Virus genome (UHGV): UHGV-1361924
Direction: 5' to 3' (one strand)
Origin: a virus
Length of the DNA: 47,390 nt
Position numbers and translations under genes: made by a program. Shown here piece by piece: positions 3,346 through 44,664 of the stretch (position 1 is the first letter of the stretch; each line of letters begins with the position of its first letter). The notes under the pieces are model-generated. The model was not told where the DNA came from, made no database searches, and saw only the letters and a program-made list of their open reading frames with translations.

Positions 3346-3624
3346 CAGAAGCGTGGATACCGTTTCTTGTGAGGGGTGTCGGTAGTTAACCAGTTGCTCC
3401 GGCATACTCATAAATTTATTGTTTTTATCTTTGACCGTGACAAAACAGGAGTGAACACCAAATGCGCCAGTGTTGATTGTTTCGTCGTATTCGTGGAGAA
3501 GTTCTGCCATTTTTTCCTGCCACTCTTTCGGCATCTGCATCATAGCCACGCGGGGCATAACAACAAACGCTGCATAAGATAAACCGAACCACCCATGCAG
3601 GTCTTTTCGATAGTCATCTTTCAT
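3334..3624 (-). CDS. hypothetical protein
   Basis: 96-aa ORF, minus strand, downstream of minus-oriented promoter motif. Confidence 0.5.
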   Translation of the reverse strand: MKDDYRKDLHGWFGLSYAAFVVMPRVAMMQMPKEWQEKMAELLHEYDETINTGAFGVHSCFVTVKDKNNKFMSMPEQLVNYRHPSQETVSTLLRKN

Positions 3625-3670
3625 CGCCTTTACCTTTTATGATTAAGTCGCCAATCGACTTAGTGAATTT

Positions 3671-3700
3671 AATCTACATCAACAACGAATCCACGTCAAC
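3671..3700 (-). promoter_or_regulatory. sigma70-like promoter TTGACG-16-TAGATT (minus orientation) built from two copies of AATCTACRTCA motif
   Basis: plus strand aatctacatcaa...ccacgtcaac; revcomp gives TTGACG then TAGATT. Confidence 0.5.
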
Positions 3701-3712
3701 ATTTACAATAAA

Positions 3713-4003
3713 TTATTTATAAAGCCAACAATGAATCCCCGCATTGCGCATGGCGGCATAAATCACATCATCAGACACGACCGCCATTGCCACCCTGTCA
3801 GCTTCAATCTGCTGGTGCGAGGCCATGATGTCATCATAGAAAATATCGTTAGCATGCAGCCATTCATACGCATTCTTTGCCCTCATAATCAGCACATCAT
3901 GCCCGGCAGAATAGAGCGACTTAGCTAGCGCAACGTTGCCAGCGATAGCATTTCCTTCCGAATCGCGCAGCACGCCATCAAGCTCGAAAATGACACATTT
4001 CAT
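3713..4003 (-). CDS. hypothetical protein (N-terminal MKCVIFELDGVL resembles HAD-like motif)
   Basis: 96-aa ORF. Confidence 0.5.
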   Translation of the reverse strand: MKCVIFELDGVLRDSEGNAIAGNVALAKSLYSAGHDVLIMRAKNAYEWLHANDIFYDDIMASHQQIEADRVAMAVVSDDVIYAAMRNAGIHCWLYK

Positions 4004-34357: not shown

Positions 34358-34395
34358 TACAATAGGGCAATTAATGATTACGGAGATTGCAGCCG

Positions 34396-36786
34396 ATGGC
34401 TACTACCCCAACTAACAAGCCAATCCCTTCTGAAGACCCGCGCGACCTGAAGTTTAACGCCGGGAAGATTGATGAAGAGGTCAACGGAAGTGCTGATTAC
34501 TACACCGACCGATTCGGCATGCAGAGGCTGACGAATACAGGAAGGAATAATCAGTTTCAGGAGGCGCAGGACCAAAGGGAGTCTGATTTCGTTGCGTCAC
34601 AAGTGGATAAAGAAGCGCGTTTTCAGCAATTTCTTTTAAGCTCTGGATATCAGTTTCTTGGTGATTATGAAAATGGGCCATACACAATTGCAGCTCGCAA
34701 TCAGATTATTCGTTATCAGAATGAATTCTGGCGTTTAAATGCGTCCACCAATCCACCATACACGACCACTGGTGTTAATAGTACGTCGTGGGCCACCGAT
34801 GTCACGCATCTGGTGAGCGTTGGTGATGCTAATTTACGTCAGGAGTTATATCAACCTACAGGGTTAGGTTTGATAGGTCAGTGCTCGACTATATCAGCTT
34901 TAAGAAACATAGCATTTAATCAGGTAGGGCAGCAGGTTTTTGTAAAAGAACATACCTCCGGGCAAAATGCCGGCGGAGGTATTTTCTACTGTCACGCCCT
35001 CACATCGTCAAGTGAGGTGGATGATAACGGTTTTCAGATTATAAATAATTTTGGGCAGGTTATTCGCAGGAAAGACCCCACTATACTATCTGCCGAAATG
35101 TTCGGATACATCCCAGACTTTAATGGAACCACCCAGACAGGCACCGACAACGCCCCAGCTATTCGCAACGCTATTAAGGCGGCTATTACTTTTAAGTACA
35201 CCAAGGTTGTGCTTCCTGCAGGCGCAGCTCTAGTGGATGTTACTTCTGCCGACATCAACTTAGGTGGTCAGGGGTACAGTGGAGTGAACGGCGTGCGCGT
35301 ACAGGGTCAGGGGCAGCAGAGCACCAGGCTATTTGTTAGGGGCCCTCTTAACTCTGTATGCTTCTCGAATATAGGCGGTAGCGGCTCAAGCTCTTATAAG
35401 TCCATATCCGGGCTGACTCTTATTTGTACTACAGATAGTACTAGAAACGTAATCCTATACCGGATGCAGGGTTGCTGTATGTCTCATAACCACGACCTAT
35501 ACATATTAAACGGGTTGATTGGCGTACAGTATTATAACGCACCAAGTGCCGGTACGTTTACCGAGTTTAACACCTTAAGCTACAGTCGTGTGCAGGGGTG
35601 TCTGTATAATATCAGTTTTGATGTTAACGGTGGCGACAATAGTTTCCACGGAAACTCCTTTGTTAACGTCCAAAACCAGATCCTTGCAGGGGCAACATAC
35701 GGCGCTGGTGTTCGGGTACTTGGTTCGACAGCGCCAGCGTATCTGTACAATCAGACATGGGACATGAAATTCTTTGGCGGTACAAACTGTCGGGCTTTTC
35801 TACTGACAAACTGTAACACCGATAACTTATACGGTAATTTGACTTTCGAAGGAAACATAATTTGCGAAACGACTGATGATTCATATTTCGAGTTTAAAGG
35901 GAATCTGGCTGGTATAAGCGGCACGACATTTACTGTAGCCACACCAACAACAACAAGAGCAGCCAACTTTGTGTTTAATAACACGCTGTCGAATTTTAGT
36001 GCTTTCACCAATGGAACACTATCCTCGTATAGCCCCCGCCTATATAATCCAGAGCTAGCGGATACTACAGATAACGGGGTATCCGCCTCCCTGTGGCGCG
36101 TGCGCAACTCCACAGGTGATGGTATTCTATTTAATTCTTTTTCAGGTAGTCCTGGGTGGTTCTTCACAACCACCGCAGTTAATCAACGCATACAAAGCGC
36201 GTCACCAAAATACTCATTTGGGCCAGATGGTAATAATATTACCGCGTACAGCGCGACTTTATATTTAAACCCCAACAATTCGACGTATGGCGTGCAGCTA
36301 TCAGCAGAAAATGCGAGATTCTCCCCCAGAGAAGATAACGTAATGTCGTGCGGGTCTGGGGGCTTTAGATGGACTCAGCTTTTTGCGACTAACAGCACAA
36401 TAGGAACATCTGATAAACGTAAGAAGACCAACCTGCGCCAGATATATGATGCAGAAGTGGATGCTTTCTATGAAATAGGTCTCCTTGATTCGGTGTGGCA
36501 ATGGCTTGAAAAGTATCAGATCGAGGGTGATGATGCTCGGTTGCATTCCGGGCCTACAGTACAAGACGCCATTGCCATTATGGAAGATTACGGTCTTGAC
36601 TGGTCAAGTTACGCCTGTTTCGTTCATACTTCCATCCCTGAGCACGTCGATGCAGAAGGTATTGCGCAACCGGCAGTTGATGAGTACGCATTCAGAAAAG
36701 AGGAGCTACTTTTTTGGATTTCCAGATCTATAGTTGCTAAGCAGCAAGACATATTAGCGCGTCTTGATGCGCTTGAAGCTAAGTAA
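34396..36786 (+). CDS. tail fibre/tailspike: conserved siphophage fibre N-terminus, parallel beta-helix, C-terminal S74-type intramolecular chaperone
   Basis: N-term SEDPRDLKFNAGKIDE; beta-helix-like repeats NISFDVNGGDNSFHGNSFVN...; C-term TSDKRKK...chaperone; ATG 34396 with GGAG RBS (ORF track start 34387 is TTG). Confidence 0.65.
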   Translation: MATTPTNKPIPSEDPRDLKFNAGKIDEEVNGSADYYTDRFGMQRLTNTGRNNQFQEAQDQRESDFVASQVDKEARFQQFLLSSGYQFLGDYENGPYTIAARNQIIRYQNEFWRLNASTNPPYTTTGVNSTSWATDVTHLVSVGDANLRQELYQPTGLGLIGQCSTISALRNIAFNQVGQQVFVKEHTSGQNAGGGIFYCHALTSSSEVDDNGFQIINNFGQVIRRKDPTILSAEMFGYIPDFNGTTQTGTDNAPAIRNAIKAAITFKYTKVVLPAGAALVDVTSADINLGGQGYSGVNGVRVQGQGQQSTRLFVRGPLNSVCFSNIGGSGSSSYKSISGLTLICTTDSTRNVILYRMQGCCMSHNHDLYILNGLIGVQYYNAPSAGTFTEFNTLSYSRVQGCLYNISFDVNGGDNSFHGNSFVNVQNQILAGATYGAGVRVLGSTAPAYLYNQTWDMKFFGGTNCRAFLLTNCNTDNLYGNLTFEGNIICETTDDSYFEFKGNLAGISGTTFTVATPTTTRAANFVFNNTLSNFSAFTNGTLSSYSPRLYNPELADTTDNGVSASLWRVRNSTGDGILFNSFSGSPGWFFTTTAVNQRIQSASPKYSFGPDGNNITAYSATLYLNPNNSTYGVQLSAENARFSPREDNVMSCGSGGFRWTQLFATNSTIGTSDKRKKTNLRQIYDAEVDAFYEIGLLDSVWQWLEKYQIEGDDARLHSGPTVQDAIAIMEDYGLDWSSYACFVHTSIPEHVDAEGIAQPAVDEYAFRKEELLFWISRSIVAKQQDILARLDALEAK

Positions 36787-36788
36787 TT

Positions 36789-36816
36789 AAAAAAGGGCCT
36801 TGCGGCCCTTTCTTCA
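36789..36816 (-). terminator. rho-independent terminator (strongest on minus strand), ends replication operon
   Basis: minus reads gggccgcaaggccc + tttttt. Confidence 0.7.
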
Positions 36817-36891
36817 TTAAAACGGAATATCATCATCAAAATCCATCGGCGGCTCATTTGCTGGTGGTTTTGGTATGTTTGATGGTTTCAT
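36817..36891 (-). CDS. 24-aa peptide identical at C-terminus to E. coli SSB acidic tail (NEPPMDFDDDIPF); in frame with VRR-NUC behind a single TGA
   Basis: MKPSNIPKPPANEPPMDFDDDIPF; TGAATG junction with upstream gene; followed directly by terminator. Confidence 0.45.
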   Translation of the reverse strand: MKPSNIPKPPANEPPMDFDDDIPF

Positions 36892-37350
36892 TCAAAAACT
36901 ATCAATTTGTATGCTCTTATCATGAGGCTTTTTCAAATGGTAATACGTTGCTCTCCAGTCATTGAATGCCATCATGGCTGCTTCCCATCCAAGGCATACG
37001 CACACAAAGCATTCTGCTTTTTTACTCGCCTCAAGATACTCAAGCTGACCATCCTCCCATTCGCAAAGTGTATGGTCTCTCCTCTTCATCTCAATGACAA
37101 GTGAGGGGTTCCCAGGGATTATTATATCTGAAGCTCCTTTGTTTAAAGCTCCTTTCTTTTTTAGGTTATTAACTTCGTGCGCTTTTCTCTTCCCCTCGTT
37201 TGGGACGTGAAGAACAAGGCGCCCAAAACTGTCAGGATACATTTTCTTCAACTGATTTATGAATGTTACAAGTTCAGCATCTTCTACAGGACATTTTTTA
37301 TTGCGGTAGTCCTTTTCACCATAAATTTTTAACCATTCTGGAAAAATCAT
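36892..37350 (-). CDS. VRR-NUC domain nuclease (PD-(D/E)xK)
   Basis: GASDIIIP...VIEMKRRDH motif. Confidence 0.7.
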   Translation of the reverse strand: MIFPEWLKIYGEKDYRNKKCPVEDAELVTFINQLKKMYPDSFGRLVLHVPNEGKRKAHEVNNLKKKGALNKGASDIIIPGNPSLVIEMKRRDHTLCEWEDGQLEYLEASKKAECFVCVCLGWEAAMMAFNDWRATYYHLKKPHDKSIQIDSF

Positions 37351-39209
37351 AACTCACCCCAGTACATTCCTTTCACATTGTAATATTTGCTGCCTTTATC
37401 CTTTCTGAACATAATGGCAGTAGGATATGTAGCATCTTCTCTTCTCGATAGTGCTTCATCTATTTCCAGTACCTCTCCAAAAGATTTAATACTGAAGTCC
37501 TCCCATTCTCTTCTTTGCCATGTCTTTTCTGCCATAGGTTTAAAGAATTTATTAACGAACCATGGCGACTGCTCAATAGCAAACTTAACTACCAACATAT
37601 CATCACCACTACTTACATAGTGGCGCGTGATGCTCATCATTGTAACTTTTGATTGCTTGGTTGCATCAGGCGCAGAGTCAAGTCTTGCCGCCTCTTCCTG
37701 TAGCTTCTGATTTGGGTCAATAATTTCTGCTTTGCAGCTCACGCAGTTACGAGCAGCAATATCATTTTCAAAACCACAATCAGGGCATTCTTTGAATGAC
37801 CACTTATACGTGCAACGACGCATTTCACGCAGCGCACCAACCATAATATAGTTCTTACAGCGACGCCCAAAGTGTCCTGGCATTGGCTTTTGTCCTATCT
37901 TTTCGCCAGATTTATCATAAATATCTACCATTATTCTGTCACCAGCGAGATCAAGCCAATATCCCTCACTGTCCATATCAAGGCCTTCTGGATTTGGGCG
38001 CACTCCAAATTCATTAACAAATCCGCATGATGGGCATTTTACTTCCATTGGAACAGATGGTTTTTTTCGCGTTGCTTTAATCTCAGGAGTAAACAGGTCT
38101 CCTGTCTCAGCAAAATGACGGTCTATGTTTCCTGCGTAGTCGCTCACGAGAAAGTTTTCCTTCCCTTCGTAAAGCCTTGTTCCACGACCTATTATCTGCT
38201 GATACAGTCGCGGTGACTCTGTGGCGCGCATTACAGCAATATGATCGCAATGTGGCACATCGACGCCAACCGTAAGGATATTCTGGTTGACGATGTATTT
38301 AACTTTCTGCGCCTTAAAATCTGATATAGCCTTGTTGCGCTCGGCAGTAGACATATCACCGAAAACATAGCTATAACTACCAGAAGGCAGAGATTCCATA
38401 ATCTCCATGGCATGCTTTTTCGTGCTGGCGAAAATCATAGTTCCACGGCGATTCGCTGAACGCCTGACGATATCCTCAACGATGCGAGATGTCTTGCGTC
38501 CTTTTCCAACCATAGCGCGCTCTACCGATGCAGTTGTATAACGCCCAAGTTTATCCTTCTCAAGTCCAGAGGTATCATATTCTTCTTCTACGTGCTCAGT
38601 AACTGGAGGAGTCAGGTAGCCATTATCAATCAGGAATTTTGCCTCAAGCTCATAAACAACCTTGTCATAGTAAGGTTCAATCGCCGTATCTTCGTCGGTT
38701 GGCCCATCAATATAGTGCTCCTTATAGATATAACCAGTACCAAGGCGGTAAGGCGTTGCGGTCATTCCAATGATGCGCAGCTTTGCGTTGCGACGCCTCA
38801 CCTCATTAATAATAAATTTAATGGTTGGCGTGATGCCGTCGCACTCATCAATGATGACGGCGCCATATTTATCTCCGAACATTTCAATAGAGTTTTTGAT
38901 TGTGACAGGAGAGCCAAACACTACCGGGTGGCGCAGATTTTTAGGACCAGCCTTGGCGCTAAACATGCTTGCTGGCTCGCCAGTTAAGAGGTATTTAGAG
39001 CGATTCTGCGTCACAAGCTCCCCCGTGGGAGCAATGCAAAGCACACGCTTTTTACTCATCTCATAGATGCGTGCTGCAAGCTCAGCGACAACCATTGACT
39101 TTCCTGCGCCAGTGGGAAGGATAATAACGCATGATGAGATTGTTCTTCTAATGTGAGCCATAGCAGCGTCAACCGCTTCCTGCTGGTATGGCCTTAGCGT
39201 ATATTTCAT
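37347..39209 (-). CDS. SF2 (DEAD/DEAH-box) helicase with C-terminal zinc ribbons
   Basis: Walker A PTGAGKS, DEAD-box IIDECD, CPSCG and CPDCG..CVSCK fingers; start at MKYTLRPYQQ with GAGAGGA RBS. Confidence 0.8.
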   Translation of the reverse strand: MKYTLRPYQQEAVDAAMAHIRRTISSCVIILPTGAGKSMVVAELAARIYEMSKKRVLCIAPTGELVTQNRSKYLLTGEPASMFSAKAGPKNLRHPVVFGSPVTIKNSIEMFGDKYGAVIIDECDGITPTIKFIINEVRRRNAKLRIIGMTATPYRLGTGYIYKEHYIDGPTDEDTAIEPYYDKVVYELEAKFLIDNGYLTPPVTEHVEEEYDTSGLEKDKLGRYTTASVERAMVGKGRKTSRIVEDIVRRSANRRGTMIFASTKKHAMEIMESLPSGSYSYVFGDMSTAERNKAISDFKAQKVKYIVNQNILTVGVDVPHCDHIAVMRATESPRLYQQIIGRGTRLYEGKENFLVSDYAGNIDRHFAETGDLFTPEIKATRKKPSVPMEVKCPSCGFVNEFGVRPNPEGLDMDSEGYWLDLAGDRIMVDIYDKSGEKIGQKPMPGHFGRRCKNYIMVGALREMRRCTYKWSFKECPDCGFENDIAARNCVSCKAEIIDPNQKLQEEAARLDSAPDATKQSKVTMMSITRHYVSSGDDMLVVKFAIEQSPWFVNKFFKPMAEKTWQRREWEDFSIKSFGEVLEIDEALSRREDATYPTAIMFRKDKGSKYYNVKGMYWGEL

Positions 39210-39221
39210 AATGTCCTCTCG

Positions 39222-39258
39222 AATAAAAAGGGCCACGAATGGCCCTTGGTTACTTTTT
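39222..39258 (-). terminator. intra-operon terminator/attenuator between SSB-like gene and helicase
   Basis: agggcca-ttcg-tggccct + ttttatt on minus strand. Confidence 0.55.
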
Positions 39259-39262
39259 GAAA

Positions 39263-39799
39263 TCAAAATGGTACATCATCGTCGAAGTCAACCGGCGGCT
39301 CTTCATCCTGCGGCTTTGCCGTTTGCTTTTGTTGCTTTGCTGCTGGAGCTGCTTTAGTCTGCTGGCGACCAAATACCCCGGCAACGTAGTTGCCTGACTT
39401 CTGCTTATCGTCAGACTGCCAGACGCGAAGCAGGAGGATCATCGGGCGGTTAGCCAGAGCGCTTGCGATAGCGAAATCAGTAGGCTCTTTCCCTGAAGCC
39501 ATCAGTTTGCCACCAGCGTTTGCATCAATTGCTGCCAGCATGCTGATGGCGTTATCGCGCTGCTTGTCCTTCTGGCTGAAAACCTTCAGCTTCTGGAAGA
39601 TGATACGATTTTTGTAATCGCCATCCAGGATGCGCCACTTCAGGTTAAAGAAGCGCTCACCTTCCCATTCATCGTCCTTGCACTCCTCAACAGCAGCCAG
39701 CACGCGGGTGCCGTCAGGAATAACTTCGAAAGCACCACCAGCCTCAAATTCAGACTTTGACTCAACTTCTTTACCGTCAGAAAGATTCCAGAAACCCAT
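39263..39799 (-). CDS. non-canonical SSB-like ssDNA-binding protein with SSB-type acidic tail (DFDDDVPF)
   Basis: C-terminal PPVDFDDDVPF; neighbours Sak4/Gp157; N-terminal region unlike E. coli SSB OB fold. Confidence 0.55.
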   Translation of the reverse strand: MGFWNLSDGKEVESKSEFEAGGAFEVIPDGTRVLAAVEECKDDEWEGERFFNLKWRILDGDYKNRIIFQKLKVFSQKDKQRDNAISMLAAIDANAGGKLMASGKEPTDFAIASALANRPMILLLRVWQSDDKQKSGNYVAGVFGRQQTKAAPAAKQQKQTAKPQDEEPPVDFDDDVPF

Positions 39800-39815
39800 T
39801 TTTATGTCCTCTCGA

Positions 39816-40295
39816 TTATTTGATGATCAGCTTTGGTTTTCCATCGGTGATGGCACAACCTTTAATTTCAGTTCCGGCTTTCAGTGCCGCTTTAATGGCT
39901 GCATTATCTGCCGAAAATTTTACAACGCGATACTGCTCTGGCAACTGCTCAACCGGGACAAACACATCCAAAACAGGAGATGGTTTGCCAAGCGTTATGC
40001 TGAACAGCTTGCCTTTGATATTCGTTTTTCCAGATGCAAGCATGTTCTGACGAAGATAATCTTTCAGGTTATCTATCTTCGCAGTCAGCACCCGCTTGCG
40101 TTCTGACAGGCGATCAATCTCAGCCTTCATGCCAGCTTCATCCGCCTCAAGCTCGCTGATATAAGCGGCAACCATCTCGGCCTTTCCTTCAAACTCCTCC
40201 TCAATCAGGTTAATGGTGTCTTCAATCTGCTCGCGTGGAATATCTTCCATCGCAAGCAGTTCGTTAAGCTGTTTCGTTATTTCGTAAAGACGCAT
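39816..40295 (-). CDS. Siphovirus Gp157 family protein
   Basis: 159 aa coiled-coil protein typical partner of Sak4. Confidence 0.6.
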   Translation of the reverse strand: MRLYEITKQLNELLAMEDIPREQIEDTINLIEEEFEGKAEMVAAYISELEADEAGMKAEIDRLSERKRVLTAKIDNLKDYLRQNMLASGKTNIKGKLFSITLGKPSPVLDVFVPVEQLPEQYRVVKFSADNAAIKAALKAGTEIKGCAITDGKPKLIIK

Positions 40296-41106
40296 AATAC
40301 TTAATCTCTGTCAGAAGTGGATTTTCGCCTTTATCAAACTGAATCTCAGGTTCAAGGTTGAAGCGATTTTTCGCATTAACGTAACCAACCCGGCCATCAC
40401 CAGAGGTGACAAGTACACGCTGCCCAGTCTGCACAACCTTACCGAACTTAGTTACCTGCCCTTTTTTATCTGTCTCAGTACCCTTCACAAACTCCTCATT
40501 GCGGATATAGATAACAGCATCGCTAAGCGCAACGTAACCATCAATACTGGCTTCGTGCATGTTGAGAGTGTAAACGGTGTACTCGTCAGAATCAGGTCGG
40601 TTCTTCATCTTACGTATGCCAGCATGCGCAAGATAAATGATGCTCATCCCTTTGTTAGAGCGAAGATACTTGCATGCGTTAATAATTTCAGCATGCATCT
40701 CAGCCACAACCAGATAGCCCTTGTTGTAACCACCGGCTGCTGCGCCAACGTTATCTACTCCATAGTTTTCGCAAACCTCATGCTCAAACATGGCGTGGAG
40801 GCTGGTGATGGAGTCGATAACCAGCGTTTTATAGTCATGCTCTTCTGTAATAAGAGCGCGCAACTGTGACAATAAGTCTTCTTTTGTACTCGTCTTGCGC
40901 TTTGCATCAGCTCGCTTCAGAACAGGGAATGAATCAGGCTTGTTTTCTTCGTCCCAGTCGTCGAATACGCCAGTAATCTCTTCAGCCTGAATGAAAACAG
41001 GCTTAGGGAAGAGCGCCGCCAGAGTCGTCTTGCCAACACCAGGGGTACCAACAAGGGTAATGATAGGTGCAACTGGTTTTGGTTTTTGAATCATTGATAA
41101 GCTCAT
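40264..41106 (-). CDS. Sak4-like RecA-fold recombination ATPase
   Basis: Walker A GTPGVGKTT; start at MSLSMIQ with GAGAGGA RBS. Confidence 0.7.
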   Translation of the reverse strand: MSLSMIQKPKPVAPIITLVGTPGVGKTTLAALFPKPVFIQAEEITGVFDDWDEENKPDSFPVLKRADAKRKTSTKEDLLSQLRALITEEHDYKTLVIDSITSLHAMFEHEVCENYGVDNVGAAAGGYNKGYLVVAEMHAEIINACKYLRSNKGMSIIYLAHAGIRKMKNRPDSDEYTVYTLNMHEASIDGYVALSDAVIYIRNEEFVKGTETDKKGQVTKFGKVVQTGQRVLVTSGDGRVGYVNAKNRFNLEPEIQFDKGENPLLTEIKYYASLRNNETA

Positions 41107-41238
41107 AGTGTCCTCTCGAATCACTCAGCGTTGTTGCTGGTGTGAGTAAAAGATACGACAGGACATTCGTCAGGTCAATAGCTTTACATAAAAATATTTT
41201 GCGTTTATCATTCTTCTATAAATTAGCAGGAGGAAAGA

Positions 41239-41480
41239 TGAAAACCATCGCTGAACAAATCAAAGAAATGGAAAAGAAAGCTCTCGATGCTCTTATTGAG
41301 CATATGGGAGGACAAGCATCGCTGGCGCGCTTCCTTGGCGTTTCTCGTCAATCAGTAAACGAATGGGTTTCCCGTGGGCGCATCAGCGCAACGGCTGCCA
41401 TAGAGGTAGATAAGCTAACCAACGGACTTTTTAAAAAGGAAGATTTGCGCCCAGCAGTTACTCAATGGAGAGCGAAATAA
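41239..41480 (+). CDS. Cro/YdaS-like HTH transcriptional regulator
   Basis: ASLARFLGVSRQSVNEWVSRGRIS; strong RBS GCAGGAGG; ORF-track 5' extension rejected. Confidence 0.55.
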
Positions 41481-43798
41481 TGACAGGATACAAGGATTAT
41501 CACGCCGCCGGATTCCCTGTTATAGGAATCCATCCAATGGATCATGACAGGAAATGTACCTGCGAGCGTCCTGAATGCGACGCAGCAGGCAAGCATCCCA
41601 TAATGTCAAACTGGCAATGTGGAATCATATGGGAAGATGACCAACTTGAAAACATGCGCGAGTTTGGCCAGCTAAATAGCTTCGGCGTGCTGGTAGATGG
41701 TTATCTTGTCGTGGATGTTGACCCGAGAAATGGTGGCAATGAAGGGTATGAGGCGCTTTGCGAGGCACTTGATATGGAGCTTGCAGATGAATCAGGATTT
41801 GTAGTGAACACTGGTGGTGGCGGAAAGCATATTTATTATAAATTGCCAGATGGAGTGAAGCTCAATTCTCACGACAAGCGATTCAAAGGAATTGACTTTA
41901 AGTCTTCAGGCTTCGTGATCGGATGTGGCTCATTCCATAAATCAGGCAACTTTTATGAAGCTGAGCATGGCTCTCCGTCATCCATAACAGAGCCACCGTC
42001 GTCACTTGTTGAGCTATTGCAACGAGCAGAGCGCGAGGAATTTTCACTCGGTGCCGAATCGTTTTCTATGCAGGAACTTCAGGACATGCTGAACCACATT
42101 AATTGTGGTGAAGATTATGAAGACTGGATTCGCGTTGGCATGGCAATTCATGAGGCAACAGATGGTAACGGATTTGATTTGTGGGACTCATGGTCATCAC
42201 GCTTCTCAAAGTATGACCCATCTGATATGGATTACCACTGGCACTCATATGGTAAGGGAAATGGGGACCGCGTCACTGCCGCTACGCTTGTTCATCTGGC
42301 TGAAGAGGGTGGATGGGTTCGTGCAGTTTCATTTCAGGCGTCGCCAGAAGAAATTGCATTGCTTGAGAAATTTGAGAAAAAAATGGCGATGGGTGTTGGT
42401 GAATGCCCGGTTGATTACAAATCTGTTGATGTGCGGTTTCCGCCAGGGTTCGTCGGCAAGTTGACGGAATGGATTAACAGAAACTGCGCTGAGAAAAGAG
42501 AATACCTCGCAGCTCTGGCAGCCATCCATGCGGCATCAATAATCTGCGGCGCCTCTTCAGATATTTACCTTACCAATCGTAAGGCTGTGCCAAATCTTTT
42601 TTCTATTGGCATCGCCGGGTCTGGCTCAGGAAAGGGTGACGTGCTTGCGGCTTTGCAAAAAATTATCGACTGCTCAGGACTCAGCAAGACAGTAGCCGGT
42701 AAAATCCGTTCTGAAAGAGCCATATATGAGGGGCTGGCAGCTAATCAGATGTTTAACCTCATTATGGATGAGATTGGCATCAAACTCGGCAGCGTGGTTG
42801 GGCAAAAGGTCAGTGAGTACAACATGGCCACGGCTGGCGCACTAATGGAGTCTTACACCGCAGAAATACTGTACTGCGACCAGCGCATCACTGATGAATA
42901 CGTCAAGCAGTTTGAAAAAAGGCTTGGCACTCTCATGATGATGATCGAAGAAAACGAGTTGCAGGCAGATCCTGTCGACATTAAGCATCAGTTTGAAGAT
43001 GTGATTAGTCGCATAGATGGTGCGATAAGAAATCCTTTCTTTTCCATGTTTGGCGTTTCGACTGATGACCAGTTCAAAAAACTCATTACCGAAGAGAACA
43101 TCAAATCAGGTCTCATGGGGCGCGCCATGATTATGCAGGAGCTTCAGGAAATCGCAGACGAAAACGAAGATGTGGAATACTGCGATCTGCCAATGTCTAT
43201 GCAAATGACCATAAAAACAATAATAAATGGCACTACTGCTGGTTACAAAAACTGGACTGAATCAATCATAAGCAACAAAGAAAGGCGAGCAATAAAGGCA
43301 ACACCAGAGGTGTCAGCAATGGCCAAAGAGTTTTTTTCATGGCTCAAGATGATTGCCCGTCAGCACGTAGAAAATGGCACAGGCTATCAACCGTTGATTA
43401 ACCGATGTGCTGTAAAGGTGGCAAAGATAGCCGGAATTCTTGCCTGCGATACTGGCGTTATCACAATGGAGCATCTACGGTACGCCGTTGCGCTCACCAT
43501 CAAATCAACAAGCGATTTAATGATGCGGGCTGATAGTTTGTCAGGGGCTAACTCCAAGAGCAACGACAGGCGCGTTGAGGGGCTTGAATCGCTTGTCCGT
43601 GAGTACGTCAAGCGTGGAATGGCCCGCAAAGCAATCATTATTGGCGTGGCTAAGGACGGAAACTATAAACGAGCTGACTCTGAGCGCATGCTGGACAAGC
43701 TCATTGAAGACGGTGAGGTTATTGAGGATAAAGAGGCCAGGCGCACAAGCAACCGGGCCATCATCTATAAATTAGTTAATGATGAGGTAAGCATATGA
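41480..43798 (+). CDS. primase-helicase (PrimPol-like N-terminus + D5/P4-type SF3 helicase-like C-terminus)
   Basis: VVDVDPRNGG catalytic motif, Zn motif CTCERPECDAAGKH, P-loop-like GIAGSGSGKG; TAATG coupling, GGAG RBS. Confidence 0.75.
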   Translation: MTGYKDYHAAGFPVIGIHPMDHDRKCTCERPECDAAGKHPIMSNWQCGIIWEDDQLENMREFGQLNSFGVLVDGYLVVDVDPRNGGNEGYEALCEALDMELADESGFVVNTGGGGKHIYYKLPDGVKLNSHDKRFKGIDFKSSGFVIGCGSFHKSGNFYEAEHGSPSSITEPPSSLVELLQRAEREEFSLGAESFSMQELQDMLNHINCGEDYEDWIRVGMAIHEATDGNGFDLWDSWSSRFSKYDPSDMDYHWHSYGKGNGDRVTAATLVHLAEEGGWVRAVSFQASPEEIALLEKFEKKMAMGVGECPVDYKSVDVRFPPGFVGKLTEWINRNCAEKREYLAALAAIHAASIICGASSDIYLTNRKAVPNLFSIGIAGSGSGKGDVLAALQKIIDCSGLSKTVAGKIRSERAIYEGLAANQMFNLIMDEIGIKLGSVVGQKVSEYNMATAGALMESYTAEILYCDQRITDEYVKQFEKRLGTLMMMIEENELQADPVDIKHQFEDVISRIDGAIRNPFFSMFGVSTDDQFKKLITEENIKSGLMGRAMIMQELQEIADENEDVEYCDLPMSMQMTIKTIINGTTAGYKNWTESIISNKERRAIKATPEVSAMAKEFFSWLKMIARQHVENGTGYQPLINRCAVKVAKIAGILACDTGVITMEHLRYAVALTIKSTSDLMMRADSLSGANSKSNDRRVEGLESLVREYVKRGMARKAIIIGVAKDGNYKRADSERMLDKLIEDGEVIEDKEARRTSNRAIIYKLVNDEVSI

Positions 43799-44172
43799 TC
43801 CGCGTAATTCAGCAAAGCGATATTTTTGCATACAGCCAGTATGAAGCTGAGTGCGAGCCAGAAGCAGCGCTAAACATGATGACTGGAAGAAACCTGATGG
43901 AAGTCTACTATCACAGCGTGCCGGTGTTTCGTTGCAATATGGGGCACAGCATAGAGGATGATGTATTTTTCTGCCGCATAAACTACAAGGGTAACACGGC
44001 ATTCATTTCACAGCCTTATCGTGATGTGGCGAAAAAATGCGGCAAGTGGACTCCAGATGAGCATTTCGCTGGAAATGCTGTGGCAAACTTCTGTGATGTG
44101 TTTGGCGTCAACAGGGAAGAACTGAAGAGACACCTTGACGCGAGGAGAGAAAGGGATTGCGCATCTAATTAA
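43795..44172 (+). CDS. hypothetical protein
   Basis: 125 aa, ATGA coupling. Confidence 0.5.
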   Translation: MIRVIQQSDIFAYSQYEAECEPEAALNMMTGRNLMEVYYHSVPVFRCNMGHSIEDDVFFCRINYKGNTAFISQPYRDVAKKCGKWTPDEHFAGNAVANFCDVFGVNREELKRHLDARRERDCASN

Positions 44173-44175
44173 AGC

Positions 44176-44205
44176 AAAGCCACCTAGCCGGTGGCTTTTT
44201 GTTTG
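44176..44205 (+). terminator. rho-independent terminator
   Basis: agccacc-tagcc-ggtggct + tttttgtttg. Confidence 0.65.
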
Positions 44206-44280
44206 ATTGAAGTTGACCAGACACGTTAAAAGTAGTAACTTTATATAAGTTGATGATTTTATTGAGTTCTAATGTTTTCT

Positions 44281-44593
44281 GGACTTTAGAGCGACATTCA
44301 AAACGTCTTTAGGAAGTTGTTGATTTTTAAACGAAAAACACCAAAAAACAGCTCTAAAGTCTACTTTTTGGTACCCCCCCCCCTCATCGAAAAATAAAAT
44401 TCATAACAAAAAAATACCCCCCCCCCCACAAAAAATAGACTTTAGAAGCAAAATCGCCCTGCAGGCCGCGTCATATATGGATTCTCTAAAGTCGTGACCT
44501 AAAAAACGTTCGGGACTATAGAGGCTCCTATAAGACCTTTTTTCTCCTTCAATACTTACCAATTATTTATATATAAACAATAGACTTTAAAAT
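44281..44593. repeat. AT-rich non-coding region with 5-7 GACTTTAGAG iterons (both orientations) flanking two poly-C tracts (C10 at 44374..44383, C11 at 44417..44427)
   Basis: seen directly; no ORF >40 codons. Confidence 0.7.
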
Positions 44594-44664
44594 CCCTTAG
44601 AGAGATGGTAACTCACGTTACAAAACTATTAGCTTGCTATTGTTTATTTATTTTCACCATCATA

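Follow-up and report, generated by a model that had tools for sequence, protein, structure and literature searches.

A 24-codon open reading frame with an SSB-type tail behind a nuclease gene of a Klebsiella siphophage is very probably an ssb relic at a recombination junction

The window analysed here is the whole of a 47,390-nucleotide stretch of viral DNA (UHGV virus genome UHGV-1361924), and the phage is a Klebsiella T1-like (Webervirus-like) siphophage. A replication/recombination operon on the minus strand and a tail-spike gene on the plus strand converge at the locus (Table 1). The last gene of the operon encodes a 152-aa nuclease, and its start overlaps the stop of the helicase gene (ATGA). 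Directly behind the nuclease TGA and in the same frame lies a 24-codon open reading frame (mini-ORF), the junction reading TTT TGA ATG AAA. The mini-ORF extends from an ATG at 36891-36889 to a TAA at 36819-36817 on the minus strand. Its DNA is ATG AAA CCA TCA AAC ATA CCA AAA CCA CCA GCA AAT GAG CCG CCG ATG GAT TTT GAT GAT GAT ATT CCG TTT TAA, and its translation is MKPSNIPKPPANEPPMDFDDDIPF, in which a linker is followed by the acidic tip ...PPMDFDDDIPF. The chromosomal SSB of E. coli terminates in ...APSNEPPMDFDDDIPF, and 13 out of 13 final residues are shared with the mini-ORF product. Both the presence of the mini-ORF in frame behind the nuclease stop and the identity of its last 13 residues with the E. 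coli SSB tail had been claimed in the initial annotation, and both were confirmed by the sequence with its translation and by residue comparison. The resemblance to SSB is not a chance effect, because the 24-mer matched PHROG ssb C-termini (E 1.5e-4) and the mini-ORF DNA matched phage ssb 3′ ends with E values down to ~1e-29.

Table 1. Features of the window around the junction of nuclease gene and mini-ORF.
Feature	Position	Strand	Remark
Tail spike / receptor-binding protein (RBP) gene	34387..36786	+	C-terminal Peptidase_S74 chaperone domain; variable cassette across the hinge
104-nt homology island	36784..36887	.	ssb relic, terminator and tail-spike stop; 89.4% vs BUCT610
Bidirectional intrinsic terminator (putative)	36789..36814	both	Between the convergent replication operon (-) and tail-spike gene (+)
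24-codon ORF (ATG..TAA)	36817..36891	-	Probable relic of the ~23 terminal codons of ssb, from linker end to acidic tip
Replication/recombination module, ~7.8 kb	36888..44645	.	Without nucleotide homology to the BUCT610 exonuclease-recombinase-ssb module
Nuclease stop TGA	36892..36894	-	Junction between replication/recombination module and ssb relic
152-aa VRR-NUC-fold (PD-(D/E)xK) nuclease (predicted)	36892..37350	-	Last gene of the minus-strand replication/recombination operon
Helicase	37347-39266	-	Replication/recombination module
DUF669-type ssDNA-binding protein	39263..39799	-	DUF669; phrog_9002 'single strand DNA binding protein', E 3.6e-67
Gp157	39816-40295	-	Replication/recombination module
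AAA_24/Sak4-like ATPase	40264-41124	-	Replication/recombination module
HTH protein	41142-41480	+	Replication/recombination module
Primase-polymerase	41465-43798	+	Replication/recombination module

The nuclease had been labelled VRR-NUC. This label appears to be right at the fold level, because the predicted structure matches that of a VRR_NUC protein and the catalytic residues are invariant. The AlphaFold model (29 homologues) has a pLDDT of 88.9, and Foldseek aligned it with the VRR_NUC structure 4qbl (E 7e-5, prob 1.00, TM 0.60/0.74). Asp75, Glu87 and Lys89, forming the D...ExK motif, are invariant in the 29 nuclease sequences. At the level of sequence profiles the label does not hold. Searches against Pfam (even at E <= 10), NCBIfam and PDB gave no match, and no precomputed Pfam domain was present among the 120 nuclease homologues listed; the profile matched was phrog_824, whose function is unknown. 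The 152-aa protein shares a predicted fold and the D...ExK motif with prokaryotic and viral VRR-NUC nucleases of the Holliday-junction type (PDB 4qbl, 4qbn and 4qbo), but its family lies outside Pfam VRR_NUC and every sequence profile tried. It also differs from them by an extra C-terminal tail with Phe as the final residue, and its last 16 residues are predicted to be disordered in the AlphaFold model. A distant homologue of the nuclease lies ~2 kb upstream of ssb in one relative (L028).

Behind the stop codon of the mini-ORF, direct folding revealed a hairpin (GGGCC-GCAA-GGCCC followed by U6) that was left unreported by a promoter/terminator consensus scanner. Its folding energy on the minus strand is –18.3 kcal/mol with a z-score of –4.6, which bears out the earlier description of a strong minus-strand terminator after the peptide stop. 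On the plus strand, the same hairpin folds with –14.4 kcal/mol and stands directly behind the convergent tail-spike gene, the stop codon of which is at 36784-36786. With its GC-rich stem and U tract, it qualifies as a putative intrinsic (rho-independent) terminator. The hairpin is kept behind full-length ssb in BUCT610/L027, and the terminator was probably inherited together with the ssb 3′ end. An Rfam search gave no known RNA family above threshold. Its hit to STnc150 was discarded, since 25.5 bits stand against a gathering score of 60 and the match, with an 82-nt gap, was driven by the terminator hairpin and AT-rich sequence.

Between 3671 and 34557, the window and BUCT610 are collinear and ~90% identical. 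The two phages have unrelated tail-spike bodies (34558-36783 in the window), and the homology island is the only similarity to BUCT610 between 34558 and 44645; homology resumes at 44646. In BUCT610 the gene order is helicase, two hypothetical genes, exonuclease, recombinase, ssb, the same GGGCC hairpin and the tail genes. Neither an exonuclease nor a recombinase was found in the window, and the helicases of the two phages share 25% protein identity. The DUF669-type protein of the window ends in EEPPVDFDDDVPF, with a DFDDDVPF tail. It appears from its sequence to be the working SSB of this phage, provided with an SSB-type tail of its own, and its presence would therefore make a classical ssb redundant or dispensable. 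In phage HK620, Sak4 and its cognate DUF669 SSB are functional, and the six C-terminal residues of the SSB are required for the stimulation of Sak4 (PMC5928155). The window resembles HK620 in having a Sak4-like AAA_24 ATPase, Gp157 and a DUF669 SSB with the DFDDDVPF end in one neighbourhood. The likeness concerns the full-length DUF669 SSB rather than the 24-codon relic.

The region 36700-37400 was used as a blastn query against 50,697 phage records. The nuclease part was matched in a handful of phages. The 24 codons and the hairpin matched the 3′ ends of annotated full-length ssb genes at 82-94%. The phages with such a match number well above one hundred, and in many of them ssb is convergent with a tail-fibre gene. 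Against the full-length ssb 3′ ends of sister Klebsiella siphophages, the 75 nt and the terminator are 89-97% identical. Homology to full-length ssb begins 3-5 nt past the nuclease stop in all window-type loci and continues through the terminator. In the relics of the Sf11 type, it starts at the first relic base and points to ssb genes of Salmonella and Shigella phages. On the other hand, E. coli ssb agrees with the window at 42 of 48 nt in the tail-coding part and at 6 of the 27 preceding nt, and the downstream DNA is unrelated. The mini-ORF most likely derives from the ssb of the phage family itself and not from that of the host, because its linker codons and terminator match phage ssb and the E. 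coli gene matches the tail codons only. The initial annotation had looked to the host ssb 3′ end as the source, and one of its readings was a pseudogenised remnant of such a captured end. The comparative data support the remnant. They do not support the host as its donor, with an E. coli match over the last ~48 nt only and a syntenic phage ssb as the source.

Sister phages such as BUCT610 keep an intact ssb at the syntenic position. What marks the mini-ORF as a putative gene relic is that its homology covers only one end of a gene which relatives retain whole in this place. The classical SSB of T1-like phages is represented by the BUCT610 product QWX10332.1, which has 158 aa and the C-terminus ...KPQQPSNTSKPPANEPPMDFDDDIPF. 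The relic shares the SSB-Ct tip DDDIPF with it and with the host protein. In contrast, the OB-fold ssDNA-binding domain is absent from the mini-ORF, which consists of 24 codons and has the nuclease in frame upstream, where full-length relatives measure 157-167 aa. No oligomerisation or DNA-binding part is left in 24 codons against the 158-167 of a classical SSB, and a nuclease gene instead of ssb stands directly upstream of the tail.

Twenty-nine distinct sequences downstream of the nuclease were compared from GenBank phages, IMG/VR and metagenomes. Twelve belong to the window clade, the nuclease of which ends in ...IDSF and whose nuclease genes are 89-98% identical in nucleotides. Eleven of these 12 have TGA as the nuclease stop, RSU-F4K5 having TAA, and eleven have ATG as the codon behind it, L015 having ATT; 22-24 codons are open in all twelve. 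Linkers differ in their residues, and two tails occur, PPMDFDDDIPF and PPMDDDIPF. Another twelve sequences form the Sf11/YX3973 clade, with ...FDGF as the nuclease end. Here the nuclease ends on TAA or TAG in all but L119, which lost its stop through a 1-nt insertion, and 38-39 codons of ssb linker and tail follow. These codons are intact and in frame in nine of the twelve, and none of the twelve has a start codon ahead of the native Met. The other three are broken by an internal TAG nonsense codon (L021) or by frameshifts (L119 and L120), and L021 and L120 contain in-frame stops beyond that of the nuclease. VLCpiS13b has a shortened and decayed relic that lacks a start codon and has its tail out of frame. 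Four loci have no relic (gmqsjt-1, ECO95, L116 and L117; also listed as L008, L010, L116 and L117), and the terminator stands directly behind the nuclease stop in them. The downstream frame is open in 21 of the 25 relic-bearing distinct sequences and broken in L004, L021, L119 and L120. Decay or loss has taken place in some lineages. Conservation of the TGA and of the ORF among relatives, which had been proposed as a check, therefore holds for the most part within the window clade and fails elsewhere, the stop being TAA or TAG in the Sf11-type clade and the frame being broken or absent in several sequences.

The start codon of the mini-ORF appears to be a local novelty of one young clade and derived within it, because the ATG is missing from the outgroups in the nuclease tree and L015, which branches as sister to all other members of the window clade, reads ATT CAA. 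Of these other members, L013 reads ATG CAA and the remainder ATG AAA. The intact start codon, the tight coupling to the upstream gene and the placement of the terminator had been advanced as three arguments against decay. The first loses its weight with the ATT of L015, the absence of the codon in all other clades and its apparently derived state. The second is met by the finding that the relic abuts the nuclease stop in two clades, also where it has no start codon. As to the third, the terminator would have belonged to the ancestral ssb gene. A different origin of the ATG, as the original ssb start left after an internal in-frame deletion of ssb, is unsupported, since full-length ssb was not found directly behind the nuclease at any locus and the outgroups have no ATG.

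Two signs of coding constraint or damage were considered and given up. The PPMDDDIPF allele, a 6-nt deletion seen in four relic phages (three distinct sequences), could be taken for damage specific to the relic. However, an exact-pattern scan of IMG/VR located it also in two intact ssb genes of 167 aa, L109 and L110; therefore, it is an ordinary ssb polymorphism and no sign of relaxed constraint. The Sf11 relic differs from that of YX3973 mostly at synonymous positions, which could be taken for selection on a coding sequence. The pattern is explained by import from functional genes, because ssb homology starts at the first relic base, the tail and terminator DNA is common across nuclease clades, and three relics of this clade are broken.

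The relic coincides with a break in similarity between genomes. Starting at the relic, phages that have it are ~99% identical to phages with ssb over as much as 2.6 kb, and their upstream sequences are unrelated. In one of the two clearest cases, the relic-bearing L014 and L037, which has an intact ssb of 167 aa, are 98.9% identical over 2,567 nt starting 5 nt past the ATG, with nothing shared upstream. L023 and L034 are 99.0% identical over 1,478 nt. A similar switch is found between L017 and L024, whose nucleases belong to different clades and are ~67% identical: identity is ~70% upstream of the relic and 84-100% downstream, and the change lies inside the tail codons. The siblings of the window are 92-96% identical through helicase, nuclease and relic, and their similarity is lost at +73 to +104. 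For the window, the 3′ half of its tail spike (35300-36900 searched) matched the phage collection in the 104-nt island only; therefore, no recent exchange partner was identified for the window itself, and L014 and L023 provide the clearest examples. As judged from these alignments, the flanking modules appear to be non-homologous or independently assorting. Crossovers that swap RBP cassettes between relic and ssb phages would have to fall in the ~100-nt island, because these phages have no other DNA in common on the replication side of the cassette. In the past at least, the relic would thus have acted as the right-hand homology arm in RBP swaps. In Webervirus, host range is reprogrammed through RBP exchange by homologous recombination (PMC13463945).

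With its homology to ssb, its position at the junction of non-homologous modules, the crossovers mapped to it and its decay or absence in some lineages, the 24-codon ORF is very probably what remains of the 3′ end of a classical phage ssb, now a hinge for recombination and non-functional as a gene. The ancestral state would be that of most phages in the family (Klebsiella T1-like siphophages), in which exonuclease, recombinase and ssb close the early operon and the bidirectional terminator behind them faces the tail-fibre genes. In the window lineage, the exonuclease-recombinase-ssb module would have been replaced or lost, with a set of Sak4-like ATPase, Gp157, DUF669 SSB, helicase and VRR-NUC nuclease in its place. 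The junction would have formed directly past the nuclease stop, and the last ~72 nt of ssb and the terminator would be the survivors. The ~100-nt island may then have been used repeatedly as a crossover site during RBP-cassette exchange. Every exchange would bring in a fresh ssb tail from a functional gene, and these tails would keep the relic intact-looking and conserved without selection on the peptide. Such re-import can therefore explain why the relic alleles, PPMDDDIPF included, mirror the polymorphism of intact ssb, and why a relic can look conserved although no peptide is selected. The terminator would still be in use, with the coding part as a remnant. We infer that the relic is without function at the protein level and owes its persistence to recombination and youth, not to selection.

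Among the alternatives, a free SSB-Ct micropeptide of 24 aa, the decoy peptide of the initial annotation, comes first. It would be produced by reinitiation at the AUG adjoining the nuclease UGA, and its DFDDDIPF tip would draw partner proteins such as ExoI, RecQ, PriA, RecO or Ung away from host SSB (or from the DUF669 SSB of the phage), the gene being born de novo from the relic. We consider this unlikely. All twelve frames of the window clade are open, and eleven have the ATG fused to the stop (TGA ATG or TAA ATG), an arrangement able to support termination-reinitiation. The second codon AAA is derived, and the series ATT CAA, ATG CAA, ATG AAA along the nuclease tree can be read as an improving initiation site. 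Also, the tip is identical to the E. coli SSB-Ct, and the operon uses translational coupling elsewhere, at the helicase/nuclease overlap. However, no Shine-Dalgarno sequence precedes the mini-ORF. Its anti-SD duplex has an energy of +0.6 kcal/mol, compared with –6.0 for the nuclease, –5.8 for the DUF669 gene and a random median of –2.1. Such an ORF is lacking in the twelve Sf11-type sequences, in VLCpiS13b and in the four relic-less loci, and L015 has ATT; therefore, it is dispensable and recent at best. The retention of the ATG says little in a clade with 89-98% identical nuclease genes, because the clade is too young, and the intactness of the tail is accounted for by re-import from functional ssb. 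The mini-ORF is uncalled in the GenBank records of four annotated relatives. The peptide, being short and unstructured, is probably unstable, and it would need high concentrations to compete with tetrameric SSB. That the relic gained a start codon in the steps above and is now translated into a micropeptide titrating ExoI, RecQ, PriA, Ung and others, or modulating the Sak4/DUF669-SSB pair, thus seems improbable from the sequences compared. If it were true, a recombination scar would have given rise to a new gene de novo and to a new anti-host strategy.

The second alternative is programmed or leaky UGA readthrough, by which linker and SSB-Ct would be added to a fraction of the nuclease and would recruit it to SSB-tail binders, either host partners or the Sak4-like protein of the phage. 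This reading had also been raised in the initial annotation, and it now looks very unlikely. In E. coli, UGA terminates relatively weakly when A follows it, and leaky UGA is known to yield the A1 protein of Qbeta as a readthrough extension. The window has an in-frame ORF behind UGA as in that case, nuclease and relic share one frame in 12 of 12 window-clade and 9 of 12 Sf11-type sequences, and the extension would be tolerated because the last 16 residues of the nuclease are predicted to be disordered. Unlike in the Qbeta case, the identity of the stop is not conserved in this family, where it is TGA, TAA or TAG. Non-suppressor enterobacteria show no appreciable readthrough of TAA or TAG. Furthermore, the downstream frame is interrupted by further stops in L021 and L120, shifted in L119 and L120, out of frame in VLCpiS13b and missing in four loci, and the Rfam search showed no stimulatory RNA structure. 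The prior chance of an in-frame junction is 1/3, and the two clades need not be independent. In-frame abutment in two clades shows somewhat more order than one would look for in a random deletion scar, which counts against the relic reading, but the low-complexity CAA/CAG/CCA linker is expected to shift its register by multiples of three, and such slippage would preserve the frame. Finally, direct capture of a host (Klebsiella or E. coli) ssb 3′ end is barely credible in spite of the 13 residues and the tail codons shared with the host gene, as similarity to ssb of E. coli, the host gene compared, ends at the tail, and the phage genes match through linker and terminator and are both syntenic and sufficient as a source.

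The ssb relic carries a caution for annotation, as a striking host-mimic mini-ORF can arise merely from a module junction, and repeated recombination with intact gene copies can keep it pristine-looking. RBP cassettes that are 99% identical behind both intact ssb and relic also mark a site at which Klebsiella phages naturally cross over in swaps of host range. This site would be useful for the choice of homology arms in RBP engineering and for reading mosaicism in a therapeutically relevant group. In the literature on SSB-Ct mimic phage peptides, Webervirus recombination and RBP exchange, and DUF669/Sak4, no description of the relic or of a free phage SSB-Ct peptide was found. The relic is a further example of an already known kind of feature, the gene remnant at a phage mosaic junction. 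Tailed phages such as the lambdoid and T1-like groups evolve in a modular manner and contain gene remnants and conserved boundary or linker sequences at their mosaic junctions. Here, too, a short conserved stretch lies between independently assorting modules, similarity changes abruptly, crossovers map to it, and the stretch is a fragment of a gene of which relatives have an intact copy. Compared with known junctions, the hinge consists of ~72 nt (SSB linker end and acidic tip) and a terminator, joins a replication module to an RBP cassette, and has gained an ATG in one clade, which gives it the look of a gene.

The hinge, that is, the ssb relic and the terminator island between the replication module and the tail-spike cassette, carries an additional small gene between the relic stop and the terminator in some relatives. 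Such extra ORFs were found in phage 6991 and VLCpiS13b. The hinge therefore also receives insertions of small accessory genes.

Features at the hinge and in the neighbouring operon
Feature	Location	Strand	Remark
Tail-spike body	window 34558-36783	+	part of the 799-aa tail spike, which has a C-terminal Peptidase_S74 chaperone domain
Hydrophobic ORF, about 64 aa	L002 (phage 6991) ~3624-3818		between relic stop and terminator
68-aa ORF	L004 (VLCpiS13b) 3620-3826		between relic stop and terminator
Nuclease residues ~137-152	window 36892-36942	-	C-terminal ~16 residues
DUF669-type SSB	window 39263-39799	-	C-terminus EEPPVDFDDDVPF
Gp157	window 39816-40295		adjoins DUF669-type SSB
Sak4-like AAA_24 ATPase	window 40264-41124		adjoins DUF669-type SSB

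The C-terminal tail of the VRR-NUC-fold nuclease is predicted to be disordered (pLDDT 56-58) and its sequence is variable. The last residue is always Phe, as in the endings IDSF, INEF, FDGF, and INNF, and because of this constancy the tail is a possible docking motif of its own. In the related locus L119, one additional T in the junction T-run (~580-590) abolishes the nuclease stop codon, and the nuclease frame continues for ~30 codons within the relic, in a frame other than that of the relic. The extra T could reflect a genuine frameshift or an error in sequencing the homopolymer. In Shigella phage Sf11 (L009), an annotated 'gp12 hypothetical protein' (3496-3678) spans the ssb relic. Its reading frame differs from that of the SSB tail, and the relic has probably given rise to a false gene prediction here.

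In several prophage-type SSBs from the IMG/VR ssb loci (L035, L039, L042, L045, L091, L097, L101, L103, and L104), the PPMDFDDDIPF motif is internal. A conserved extension of ~10 residues (APIGLPYPRH-like) comes after it, so that the 'C-terminal' tip does not form the end of these proteins. Within the operon, the C-terminus of the DUF669-type SSB is a second SSB-Ct-like tail. The arrangement of this SSB beside the Sak4-like ATPase and Gp157 resembles the Sak4/SSB module of HK620.

On the other side of the hinge, a nucleotide match to the tail-spike body was not found in the phage collection of 50,697 records. The protein may possess an uncharacterised receptor-binding or depolymerase specificity.
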